A DNA stretch of 8,396 nt, from IMG/VR virus record IMGVR_UViG_2778261464_000009, positions 1 through 8,396 of that record; one strand, given 5' to 3'. A program made the position numbers and the translations under genes. How positions within the stretch are numbered: position 1 is the stretch's first letter; each line of letters starts with the position of its first letter. The notes below the pieces were generated by a model. That model saw only the letters and a list, made by a program, of their open reading frames with translations, was not told the DNA's origin and ran no database searches. The stretch is from a virus (lineage: Duplodnaviria > Heunggongvirae > Uroviricota > Caudoviricetes). Below, one piece after another: positions 4,926 through 8,396 of this stretch.

Positions 4926-5093
4926 ATGCACTTCCGAGTCACAGGAGAATGGAATGGAGAGCCATTCAACAGAGTTATCGAAGCAGAGAACATCAACGAC
5001 TGCTATGACCACTGGATGCTATGGGCGCAGATAGCACATGCAGACGTAACCAATATTCGAATTGAAGAACTGAAAGAACACCAAGCCGCCTGA
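4926..5093 (+). CDS. Small hypothetical protein (55 aa)
   Basis: GGAG at 4915-4918 is 7 nt before ATG 4926. Product MHFRVTGEWNGEPFNRVIEAENINDCYDHWMLWAQIAHADVTNIRIEELKEHQAA. The stop lies inside a terminator hairpin. Below the track cutoff. Confidence 0.45.
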   Translation: MHFRVTGEWNGEPFNRVIEAENINDCYDHWMLWAQIAHADVTNIRIEELKEHQAA

Positions 5094-5108
5094 TGGCGGT
5101 TTTTTATT
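5083..5108 (+). terminator. Putative intrinsic terminator
   Basis: GC stem GCCGCC/GGCGG(T) with loop TGAT, followed by TTTTTTATT. Confidence 0.45.
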
Positions 5109-5119
5109 GGAGACAAGAA

Positions 5120-5464
5120 ATGTCAGATTTGGCTATGAAGGTTTTGAAATGGCAATCGACTGGCGATGTTGGCATCAGTAGCGCAACTCTTGCCTCAATC
5201 GCATGTGGACTGAAAAAGAATATCTATGGTCATAGCTTCGGTGCTCCACATGACGCAGCCGATTTCCGACGATGCGTTGCGCTTGTCGAGCAGATTCCAG
5301 AAATCAGGGATTCATTCGACAAGGTTGCAAAGCGCGTTCCGGCATTCAAAGGAATCCTCAACGAATGGGATTCCCTCGTTGCTCTGTTGAAGTCTGAAAT
5401 GAAGATACACGGAAACAAAGCACCAGAGACTTACAGAAGAATCAGCGAGCTACGCAAGGACTAA
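5120..5464 (+). CDS. Hypothetical protein (114 aa), uncharacterised accessory gene just upstream of xis
   Basis: Track ORF 5093..5464 trimmed to ATG 5120, which has a GGAG at 5109-5112 with 7-nt spacing; ATG 5093 sits inside the terminator stem. No recognisable family. Confidence 0.55.
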   Translation: MSDLAMKVLKWQSTGDVGISSATLASIACGLKKNIYGHSFGAPHDAADFRRCVALVEQIPEIRDSFDKVAKRVPAFKGILNEWDSLVALLKSEMKIHGNKAPETYRRISELRKD

Positions 5465-5553
5465 CCACAGCCTCACACTCGATGAGGCCTGTTCATTTCT
5501 CAAGATATCCAGACCTACCGCAATAATACCAACGCAATAAATGGAGATTCCAG

Positions 5554-5901
5554 GTGGAAGAAGAAATCTTCACTCGTGAAGAGGCTGCGTCGTATCTGAA
5601 GGTAGACAAAGGCACTATCACGCAGTGGATACGAAGTGGACGACTTCAAGCCGCAAAGATAAATCCAGATAAACCTAAAAGCCCATATCGCATTTGCAAG
5701 TCAGACTGCATTGCGGCGCTTAAGTCTGTGAGACACAATAGCGCGGTGAATGCGGTTGATGTGCAGGAGGTTAAAGCATGTCAATCAAACTACGCGGTGG
5801 CACGTGGCACTGCGATTTCGTCGCGCCAGATGGATCAAGAGTTAGACGCTCTCTTGAAACATCGGACAAAAGGCAAGCGCAAGAACTTCACGATCGTCTG
5901 A
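5554..5901 (+). CDS. xis: Excisionase-family DNA-binding protein (Xis)
   Basis: N-terminal FTREEAASYLKVDKGTITQWIRSGRLQAAKI matches the excisionase-family HTH pattern. GGAG is 7 nt before GTG 5554. It lies directly upstream of int and overlaps it by 124 nt in another frame; the 3' extent is uncertain. Confidence 0.6.
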   Translation: MEEEIFTREEAASYLKVDKGTITQWIRSGRLQAAKINPDKPKSPYRICKSDCIAALKSVRHNSAVNAVDVQEVKACQSNYAVARGTAISSRQMDQELDALLKHRTKGKRKNFTIV

Positions 5902-6938
5902 AAGCAGAAGCGTGGAGAGTAAAAAATCTCGGGGAATCACCGAAAAAGCTATTCAAGGAAGCCTGCATACGGTGGCTGCGTGAGAAATCGGATAAGAAGT
6001 CCATTGATGATGACAAGAGCATTATATCGTTCTGGATGTTGCACTTCAGAGAAACCATTCTCTCTGACATAACAACAGAAAAAATAATGGAGGCGGTAGA
6101 CGGGATGGAAAACCGCCGCCATCGCCTGAACTGGGAGATGAGCCGGGACAGGTGTTTGCGGCTTGGCAAGCCAGTGCCGGAGTATAAACCAAAGCTGGCA
6201 AGCAAAGGAACGAAGACGCGGCATCTGGCAATACTTCGCGCTATTCTCAATATGGCTGTTGAATGGGGATGGCTTGACAGGGCGCCAAAAATATCAACAC
6301 CACGCGTTAAGAATGGACGAATCAGATGGCTTACAGAGGAGGAATCGAAGCGCCTGTTTGCAGAAATTGCTCCTCATTTCTTCCCTGTGGTCATGTTTGC
6401 AATCACGACAGGCCTTCGCCGTTCCAACGTTACAGACCTTGAGTGGTCACAGGTCGATCTGGATAAGAAAATGGCATGGATGCACCCTGATGAAACAAAA
6501 GCTGGCAATGCGATCGGAGTTCCTCTTAACGAAACCGCATGCCAGATATTAAGAAAACAGCAGGGGCTCCATAAGAGATGGGTATTTGTCCACACCAAAC
6601 CTGCCTACCGAAGCGACGGAACAAAAACAGCAGCGGTAAGGAAGATGAGAACCGACAGCAACAAGGCATGGAAGGGAGCGTTAAAGCGGGCAGGCATTAG
6701 CAACTTCCGCTTCCATGACCTGAGGCATACCTGGGCAAGCTGGCTGGTTCAGTCTGGTGTCTCTCTTCTTGCGCTTAAAGAGATGGGAGGATGGGAAACT
6801 CTCGAAATGGTTCAAAGATACGCCCACCTTTCAGCCGGGCATCTCACCGAGCACGCGAGCAAAATCGATGCGATTATAAGTCGCAATGGCACAAATACGG
6901 CACAAGAGGAGAACGTAGTTTACTTAAATGCGAGGTAA
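5778..6938 (+). CDS. int: Tyrosine-type site-specific integrase (phage integrase family)
   Basis: 386 aa. N-terminal arm-type domain (MSIKLRGGTWHCDFVAPDGSRVRRS...). Catalytic residues in context: TGLRRSN, HDLRHTWAS, and Tyr in MVQRYAHL. AGGAGG is 7 nt before ATG 5778. Ends 14 bp from the tRNA. Confidence 0.9.
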   Translation: MSIKLRGGTWHCDFVAPDGSRVRRSLETSDKRQAQELHDRLKAEAWRVKNLGESPKKLFKEACIRWLREKSDKKSIDDDKSIISFWMLHFRETILSDITTEKIMEAVDGMENRRHRLNWEMSRDRCLRLGKPVPEYKPKLASKGTKTRHLAILRAILNMAVEWGWLDRAPKISTPRVKNGRIRWLTEEESKRLFAEIAPHFFPVVMFAITTGLRRSNVTDLEWSQVDLDKKMAWMHPDETKAGNAIGVPLNETACQILRKQQGLHKRWVFVHTKPAYRSDGTKTAAVRKMRTDSNKAWKGALKRAGISNFRFHDLRHTWASWLVQSGVSLLALKEMGGWETLEMVQRYAHLSAGHLTEHASKIDAIISRNGTNTAQEENVVYLNAR

Positions 6939-6952
6939 CTTATTGATTTAAA

Positions 6953-7028
6953 TGGTGCCGATAATAGGAGTCGAACCTACGACCTTCGCATTACGAATGC
7001 GCTGCTCTACCAACTGAGCTATATCGGC
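6953..7028 (-). tRNA. thrW: tRNA-Thr (anticodon CGU)
   Basis: The reverse complement is a 76-nt tRNA: GCCGATATAGCTCAGTTGGTAGAGCAGCGCATTCGTAATGCGAAGGTCGTAGGTTCGACTCCTATTATCGGCACCA. 7-bp acceptor stem, GTTCGA T-loop, anticodon CGT at positions 34-36, encoded CCA end. Confidence 0.9.
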
Positions 7029-7142
7029 CCTGAAAGGACATGTTCACGAACGTGAATCACGGTGGGCAAGGTTAAAACTAACCGGGCGATGCGTCAATGG
7101 CCTTGTGAATCAAATGGCTACTTTTGCATCACCCGGTTTTAT

Positions 7143-8396
7143 TTACGCACGAATGGTGTAATCACCAATGCCGATCCACTTGTAAGTGGTCAGTGCTTCC
7201 AGCCCCATTGGGCCACGCGCGTGGAGTTTTTGTGTGCTTACCGCCACTTCCGCACCCAGTCCAAACTGACCGCCGTCGGTAAAACGCGTAGAAGCGTTAA
7301 CGTAAACAGCGGACGAATCCACTTCGTTAACAAAACGCTGGGCGTTGCGCATATCGCGGGTCAGGATCGCATCGGAGTGTTGTGTGCCGTGTTCACGAAT
7401 ATGGGCGATGGCATCGTCAAGATCGCTGACGATTTTGACGTTCAAATCTAATGACAGAAACTCATCGTCATACTCTTCGGCTTTAACCGCCACCACCTTC
7501 GCGGGGCCAGCCTGCAACTGTGTCAGCGCAGCTGCATCTGCGTGTAATGTCACGCCGCTTTCCGCCATTTGTTTGCTTAATACGGGCAGGAAGCTATCGG
7601 CGATGTTTTTATTCACCAGCAACGTTTCTACCGTATTACATGTGCTCGGACGCTGAGTTTTCGCGTTGACGATCACTTTTAATGCTTCAGCGATCTCTGC
7701 ACTTTCATCAACATAAATATGGCATACGCCTATACCACCTGTGATCACCGGGATCGTCGACTGTTCGCGGCACAGTTTATGCAAACCAGCCCCGCCGCGC
7801 GGGATCAGCATGTCGATGTATTTATCCATACGCAGCATTTCACTGACCAGCGCACGGTCAGGATTATCAATTGCCTGCACGGCACCCGCCGGTAAGCCAC
7901 AGGATTTCAGGGCGTCCTGAATCACCGCCACCGTTGCCGCGTTAGTGCGACAGGTTTCTTTGCCGCCGCGCAGGATCACCGCGTTACCGGTTTTCAGGCA
8001 CAGCGAAGCGACATCAACCGTCACGTTCGGGCGCGCTTCATAAATCACGCCAATAACCCCCAGCGGTACGCGACGACGCTCAAGACGCAGGCCGCTGTCC
8101 AGTACGCCGCCATCGATTACCTGCCCCACCGGATCGGCGAGGTTGCACACCTGACGTACATCGTCGGCAATGCCTTTCAGCCGTGCGGGCGTCAGTGCCA
8201 GACGGTCAAGCATCGCTTCGCTAAGGCCATTGGCACGCGCGTCAGCAACATCCTGGGCGTTAGCGTTGAGGATGATTTTGCTCTGTGCTTCCAGTTCATC
8301 GGCGATTTTTTCCAGCACGCGATTTTTTTCGCGGCTTGAGAGTTGCGCTAATTTATACGAGGCTTGCTTCGCGGCAATGCCCATTTGCTCCAGCAT
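7143..8396 (-). CDS. proA: Gamma-glutamyl phosphate reductase (glutamate-5-semialdehyde dehydrogenase), full length
   Basis: 417-aa product beginning [39 protein letters not shown]... and ending ...[12 protein letters not shown], near-identical to E. coli ProA as recalled. The start codon is at the window's right edge. Confidence 0.95.

Follow-up and report, generated by a model that had tools for sequence, protein, structure and literature searches.

Phage P22 carries an excisionase gene, xis (351 nt, 116 aa), and an integrase gene, int (1164 nt, 387 aa), which overlap by 124 nt (X04052, BK000583). P22 Xis has been purified and, in the account of Mattis 2008 cited in PMC7498355, binds and bends att DNA. 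For this type of excisionase, the promotion of excisive and inhibition of integrative recombination and the binding and bending of the att arm are known from P22 Xis alone, and the Xis described here is known from its sequence. Among the papers searched, none was found that treats how long the P22 overlap is or whether it is under selection. Lambda Xis is a small winged-helix protein that bends the att arm and has a basic, disordered C-terminal tail, which is required for cooperativity with Int and is dispensable for DNA binding (PMC4880445). The tail is directed towards the N-terminal domain of Int or towards arm DNA (PMC4880445).

The locus reported here lies in a window (the whole 8,396 nt stretch of DNA analyzed) and shares several features with P22: the same gene order, the +1 phase of the overlap, the end of the overlap at the junction of Int L41 and K42, and a position beside a thrW-type attachment site. 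The P22 Xis also carries the tail motif described below, in the form LSSLLGQRT. The two loci differ in that their sequences have diverged, in the GTG start of xis in the window, and in the presence of gtrABC beyond attP in P22.

Closely similar modules are found in mEp213, mEp043, HK75, HK446, HK542, mEpX2, ECP1 and the Shigella phage SfX, all with 97–99% nt identity to window positions 5400–6100. These phages differ from the window by only a few substitutions, e.g. Xis A87 of the window is V in mEp213. The records of mEp213, HK75 and SfX annotate a 348 nt excisionase gene and an integrase gene with the identical 124 nt overlap, and mEp213 in addition has an annotated thrW-like attP directly after int. 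The long xis-int overlap is an already known, standard P22-type layout, and the exact module is annotated in several phages. A preliminary description of the window had regarded an overlap of 41 codons as unusually long. In this family it is the norm: each of 351 loci shows 124, 142 or 145 nt, and the P22 record X04052 carried the annotation as early as 1986.

Organization of the xis-int locus

The features of the locus are listed in Table 1. The genes, their coordinates, the AGGAGG ribosome binding site with its 7 nt spacing and the 124 nt overlap, as given in the preliminary description, all agree with the open reading frame list and the sequence.

Table 1. Features of the xis-int locus and its surroundings (window coordinates)
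Feature	Position	Strand	Remarks
xis, P22-type excisionase (recombination directionality factor)	5554..5901	+	GTG start, TGA stop, 115 aa; open reading frame list
Xis residues 1–57, winged-helix DNA-binding domain, outside the overlap	5554..5724	+	AlphaFold2 prediction
GGAG Shine-Dalgarno of xis	5543..5546	+	7 nt 5′ of GTG; sequence reading
AGGAGG Shine-Dalgarno of int	5765..5770	+	7 nt 5′ of ATG; within xis codons 71–73 (Q-E-V)
int, tyrosine integrase	5778..6938	+	ATG start, 386 aa; open reading frame list
Dual-coding overlap, 124 nt	5778..5901	+	Int codons 1–41; Xis 75 (last base only), 76–115 and stop
Xis motif E-L-x-x-L-L-x-x-R-T, residues 96–105 (ELDALLKHRT)	5839..5868	+	conserved beyond the Int-imposed level
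tRNA-Thr(CGT) gene, thrW-type	6953..7028	-	ARAGORN; 15 nt past the int stop

The overlap comprises 41 codons of xis, the stop among them, and one further nt, and Xis reads the +1 frame of int. The TGA of xis (5899–5901) spans Int codons L41 (CTG) and K42 (AAA). Both the Shine-Dalgarno and the AUG of int lie inside xis codons 71–76, and a GAGG or GGAG core is retained at the position of the int Shine-Dalgarno in all lineages compared. The start position of xis is shared with the annotated xis genes of mEp213 and HK75; GTG and ATG alternate as the start codon among homologues.

The xis-int pair is the integration/excision module at the end of a lambdoid prophage at the thrW tRNA-Thr site, and the tRNA-Thr(CGT) gene beyond int marks the attachment-site junction of the prophage. 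The minus-strand open reading frame at 7143–8396, after the tRNA-Thr gene, presumably encodes gamma-glutamyl phosphate reductase (proA).

On the other side of the module, upstream of xis, two open reading frames at 5093–5464 (123 aa) and 4926–5093 (55 aa) gave no Pfam match. Their DNA shows 94–99% identity to HK022, phage 434 and Stx phages, and the int modules of these phages are unrelated to that of the window. Thus a mosaic boundary is placed just 5′ of xis, near position 5520. A terminator-like hairpin (GCCTCA...TGAGGC, 5470–5497) followed by a T-rich run is situated between the 5093–5464 open reading frame and xis; the region scanned holds no more terminator-like sites than chance would produce.

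Identity of Xis and Int

Residues 6–51 of Xis match Pfam HTH_17 (PF12728) with E-value = 1.4e-8, above the curated cut-off, and the protein aligns end to end with PHROG 2907 'excisionase' (positions 2–117 of 117, E-value = 1.5e-52). The identity is 98–99% with the excisionases annotated in mEp213, HK75 and SfX, and 42.5% with P22 Xis (tblastn, residues 1–112, 97% of the length, E-value = 8e-22). The locus thus shows the combination that marks the PHROG 2907 type, i.e. an HTH_17 domain, full-length homology including the tail, and a +1 overlap with the int start beside an att site. HTH_17 was the only Pfam match at E ≤ 0.01, and the lambda-type excisionase family was not among the matches. A sequence search of solved structures with Xis gave just weak, BldC-like matches (E-value = 0.14).

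Int shows the Phage_integrase catalytic domain (PF00589) at residues 184–353 (E-value = 9e-35) and has 54% identity with P22 Int. Matches to Int in the PDB consist of XerC-like proteins and HP1 integrase and cover the catalytic domain only; lambda Int was not reached in this sequence search. Part of the N-terminal end of Int is encoded by the overlap. The AlphaFold2 model of residues 1–80 displays strands at 3–6, 9–15 and 21–25 followed by a helix at 31–52, with pLDDT about 80. Foldseek with this model found no significant PDB neighbour (best E-value = 0.31), Pfam gave only a sub-threshold DUF6538 match for the region, and a protein search with residues 1–80 returned 12 fragments and nothing else. 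The order strand-strand-strand-helix is that of the lambda Int arm-binding domain, and by this order of predicted secondary structure the Int N-terminus may correspond to that domain.

Distribution and constancy of the overlap

A first set of 28 loci was drawn from 15 phage records plus 13 contigs of genomes; their Int sequences are 52–100% identical to that of the window. The xis frame enters int in every one of these, with an overlap of 124 nt in 22 and 145 nt in six, and the third reading frame closes within 17–68 nt. Four single-protein scans of viral contigs enlarged the set to 351 related loci with 225 unique int sequences. The overlap is 124 nt long in 265 of the 351 loci and 145 nt in 85; the one remaining locus has a one-codon deletion and an overlap of 142 nt. 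In the 145 nt class, Int position 41 is R and not L, so that there is no stop at that junction and xis ends seven codons later.

Betaproteobacterial prophages, fetched separately, keep the layout, with overlaps of 124 nt in Chromobacterium and 106 nt in Vogesella. In Vogesella urethralis (L354/L355, 1265–1606), Xis stops six residues early, at ...ELDRLLAQRTKNRH, thus the extreme C-terminus of the tail is dispensable there. Vogesella keeps the tail motif as ELDRLLAQRT, and Chromobacterium vaccinii (L352, 1190–1624) displays a weakened form, SALEAALAHRT. Both frames are open across the relatives, in 351 of 351 informative loci and in the Betaproteobacterial loci. An early stop in the xis frame near the int start, which in window coordinates would fall near 5780 and which the preliminary description had named as the result that would speak against a functional tail, was found neither in the 351 loci nor in the Chromobacterium and Vogesella prophages examined.

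Two sets of apparent exceptions were rejected. Locus L313 seemed to have a 37 nt overlap, but its int is interrupted and it was set aside as an outlier. The truncated or chimeric Xis-like proteins P0025–P0031 form mostly singleton clusters (one has four members); they are rearranged or fragmentary and do not represent a lineage without the tail.

Among 5426 complete E. coli genomes, 125 hold the same module, with both overlapping genes annotated by PGAP. A separate observation concerns E. coli strain 2452 (H100, NZ_CP031833.1, 3730029–3730158), in which only window positions 5772–5901 are matched, at 100% identity. The match adjoins a gene annotated as a phage tailspike; the int start is joined to other upstream DNA, and the N-terminal part of xis is absent.

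Selection in the two reading frames

It is not unusual for a +1 frame to stay open by chance across 40 codons of int. With the Int sequence fixed and synonymous codons drawn at random from int codon usage, the probability is 0.15–0.53 per lineage, and frame openness within a single lineage is weak evidence of coding. Multiplied over 12 representatives, with independence assumed, the probability falls to 4e-7.

The phase of the overlap allows a more direct comparison. The third codon position of Int is the second position of Xis, therefore every Int-silent third-position change alters Xis. In seven independent within-clade pairs, Int-silent differences number 45/257 (0.175) in codons 2–41 and 896/1970 (0.455) from codon 49 to the end (Fisher p = 5e-19), and the lowest value for any other 40-codon window is 0.264. 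Eleven sister pairs with 2–15% divergence show 13/422 (0.031) and 428/3437 (0.125) for the same two regions (Fisher p = 1.2e-10; lowest other 40-codon window 0.060). Relative to the remainder of int, the overlap is depleted 2.6- to 4-fold in Int-silent changes. In a sliding window the rate climbs between codons 36 and 46 to the gene-wide level, from about 0.15–0.3 in the seven pairs or 0.02–0.05 in the 11 pairs, and in both sets the rise coincides with the xis stop. The xis-only part of the same seven pairs has a value of 0.314, thus the overlap is not simply a segment that was shared more recently.

At the amino acid level, the seven pairs differ at 0.057 of Int positions within the overlap vs 0.107 in the rest of Int, and at 0.179 of positions in the Xis tail vs 0.128 in the Xis DNA-binding domain. 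The 86 substitutions seen in the overlap in 17 pairs were also classified by their effect in each frame, with rates expressed per possible change. Changes silent in both frames have the highest rate (0.078), followed by those silent in Int that change Xis (0.045), those that change Int and are silent in Xis (0.011), and those changing both (0.0036). None of the 86 substitutions creates a xis stop.

Eight deep lineages, in which silent sites are near saturation, have a summed pairwise Xis-tail identity of 497. A simulation constrained by Int only, which takes no account of any common ancestry still visible at silent sites, gave 311 ± 32, and the highest of its 2000 runs reached 390.

Purifying selection is seen in each frame separately, as in a dual-coding segment. 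Both frames are under purifying selection, that on Int being the stronger, that on the Xis tail weaker but clear. The preliminary description had left the choice between a true dual-coding region and a Xis tail that is not conserved, to be made by comparing substitution patterns at homologous junctions. That comparison yields constraint in both frames and not in int alone. The first possibility is supported, by the depletion of Int-silent changes up to the xis stop, by a tail identity above the simulated maximum and by a xis frame that is open in all 351 loci.

The Xis tail

The AlphaFold2 model of Xis, built on an alignment of 18 sequences, consists of two unlike parts. Residues 1–57 form a predicted winged helix-turn-helix (helices 8–15, 19–28 and 49–57, strands 33–35 and 45–48; pLDDT 70–83). 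In residues 60–115 the pLDDT is below 50 everywhere but in one short helix (94–102), which coincides with the conserved motif. By sequence reading, the tail has 8 Lys/Arg vs 3 acidic residues.

In a per-position comparison with simulation, S78, T86, E96, L97, L100, L101, R104, T105 and G107 are conserved beyond the constraint imposed by Int. Together the excess-conserved tail positions define the E-L-x-x-L-L-x-x-R-T segment. Other residues are explained by the int frame: C76 is fully forced by Int M1-S2, and G85 by Int W10.

An exhaustive profile search produced about 30 clusters of 103–123 aa that align end to end with Xis. More distant relatives are 56–76 aa long and match residues 1–65 only. 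From these sequence comparisons, a short HTH_17 excisionase appears to have gained the tail by growing into the 5′ end of int, a case of overprinting. An origin by overprinting fits the faster evolution of the tail and its predicted disorder.

Two phages show how the parts of the module may recombine. SfV (L008) and ev243 (L010) share 80–100% nt identity in the DNA-binding domain of xis, and about 60–65% in the remaining tail and int, starting from about Int codon 8. The mosaic junction is situated inside the overlap, at locus positions ~1741–1760 (Int codons ~5–11). Thus one Xis DNA-binding domain occurs in company with two distinct sets of integrase and tail, a pattern which implies that the DNA-binding domain is exchangeable and that the tail necessarily follows int. 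A further variant is found in the Salmonella phage SEN22 (L018, 1444–1785), whose xis frame has no N-terminal helix-turn-helix, its homology starting from about residue 30 of Xis. The SEN22 tail frame is still open to the stop of the 145 nt class. The SEN22 excisionase may be defective.

RNA structure and regulatory signals around the overlap

The RNA of window positions 5754–5794 shows a predicted 11-bp hairpin (GGUUGAUGUGC / GCAUGUCAAUC), whose loop holds the int AGGAGG and whose stem includes the int AUG. The surrounding 101 nt segment has a folding energy of -36.8 kcal/mol (z-score = -2.1). A consensus RNA structure at the int start was sought in the 12-lineage alignment and had 0 pairs; as the hairpin over the int AUG has no counterpart there, it is not regarded as typical of the family. 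No sigma-70-like promoter was found in 5300–7150, and no cII-type site (TTGC-N6-TTGC) near xis; matches to the latter with at most one mismatch number 15 in the window, with 15.2 expected. A programmed -1 frameshift from xis into int was also considered and rejected, as no X-XXY-YYZ slippery heptamer is present in the xis frame of the overlap.

These signals bear on a reading in which the overlap is mainly regulatory. Translation of xis would set the translation of int, by occluding or opening its start, and hence the Int:Xis ratio, and the sequence of the tail would be of minor importance. This is unlikely as the principal explanation. The position of the int Shine-Dalgarno and AUG within xis codons 71–76 is compatible with it, as is a hairpin that locally could mask the AUG, but that hairpin is not conserved in the 12 lineages. 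Likewise the overlap keeps its phase and roughly its length, yet the exact length varies (106, 124, 142 and 145 nt) while the motif persists, and a purely positional role leaves the amino acid conservation of the motif unexplained. A regulatory role could coexist with a functional tail.

A second reading attributes the low silent variation in Int codons 1–41 to a nucleic acid element (RNA structure, promoter or binding site) or to recent exchange, and we regard it as highly improbable. The 5′ ends of genes are often under extra constraints, the window hairpin has the favourable z-score given above, and mosaic junctions do fall inside the overlap. The depression, however, covers all 40 codons and stops at the xis stop, the consensus pairs, promoter and cII-type site that such elements would provide are missing from the regions and lineages searched, the neighbouring xis-only stretch shows no exceptional similarity in these pairs (0.314), and the conservation at the amino acid level is specific to the Xis frame.

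That the tail is functionless read-through, with the first ~60–75 residues sufficient and its conservation a mere reflection of the Int N-terminus, has very little probability left: the chance openness of the frame in any one lineage, the wholly Int-forced residues C76 and G85, the predicted disorder, the faster change of the tail than of the DNA-binding domain (0.179 vs 0.128) and the many HTH_17 excisionases of just 56–76 aa would all agree with it, but Int-silent, Xis-changing substitutions are depleted solely up to the xis stop, the tail identity exceeds the Int-only maximum, the excess conservation clusters in the helix-forming motif, and no early stop occurs in any of the loci examined.

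A proposed role for the tail

The reading we prefer, and consider very probable, is that the locus is a P22-like module with a two-part Xis, that both frames of the overlap are selected, and that the tail arose, as we infer, by overprinting and probably aids the assembly of the excisive complex with Int. In this mechanism the N-terminal domain of Xis would bend the att arm; the bend made by P22 Xis is reportedly about 137 degrees. The tail would contact Int or arm DNA and in this way lead to cooperative assembly of the excisive complex, as the C-terminus of lambda Xis does. Int would be translated from its own strong Shine-Dalgarno, embedded in the xis codons. Encoded in the same stretch as the Int N-terminus, the tail would stay with its own integrase whenever modules recombine.

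Lambda Xis provides the analogy for a tail that probably mediates the cooperation between Xis and Int. Since no homology between P22-type and lambda Xis can be detected, the functional parallel may fail. A more specific proposal, which we put forward tentatively and as rather doubtful, is that the Xis tail helix and the sheet-helix domain at the Int N-terminus, both encoded by the same 124 nt, bind each other directly in the excisive complex. In that case the overlap would weld the partner-specific surface of a directionality factor to its own integrase, and the Xis DNA-binding domain could be swapped (apparently the SfV/P22-type against the ev243-type) without separating the tail from its cognate Int.

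Annotation of xis

With the layout itself known, the remaining value of the locus lies in a pitfall of annotation and in a defined motif, which offers a target for the question of how P22-type Xis communicates with Int. In six phage records, i.e. ev243, 75/02 Stx, Edno5, HK639, RAH1 and SEN22, the integrase is annotated and xis is not. All six (L010, L012, L013, L014, L017 and L018) hold a full-length xis open reading frame that overlaps int, that of SEN22 being without the N-terminal domain. In the Edno5 record, a minus-strand hypothetical gene is called across the xis site instead. In the phage L genome paper, xis was added by hand (PMC8022706). The xis gene is often dropped by gene callers because of the long overlap, and prophages of this kind may therefore be wrongly scored as lacking an excisionase.

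Comparison with lambda and with other overprinted genes

Lambda has the same gene order as the window, and its xis also overlaps the start of int. The lambda overlap is only 23 nt, however, lambda Xis is 72 aa long, and it has no detectable sequence homology to the Xis of the window. The attB site used by lambda lies between gal and bio, and not in a tRNA gene.

Overprinted phage genes of the Rz/Rz1 type likewise carry two frames on one segment, both of them selected, and as in the window the peptide of the newer frame is disordered and evolves faster. The xis-int overlap differs from Rz/Rz1 in that it joins the 3′ end of one gene to the 5′ end of the next, and in that its two products act in one recombination complex.
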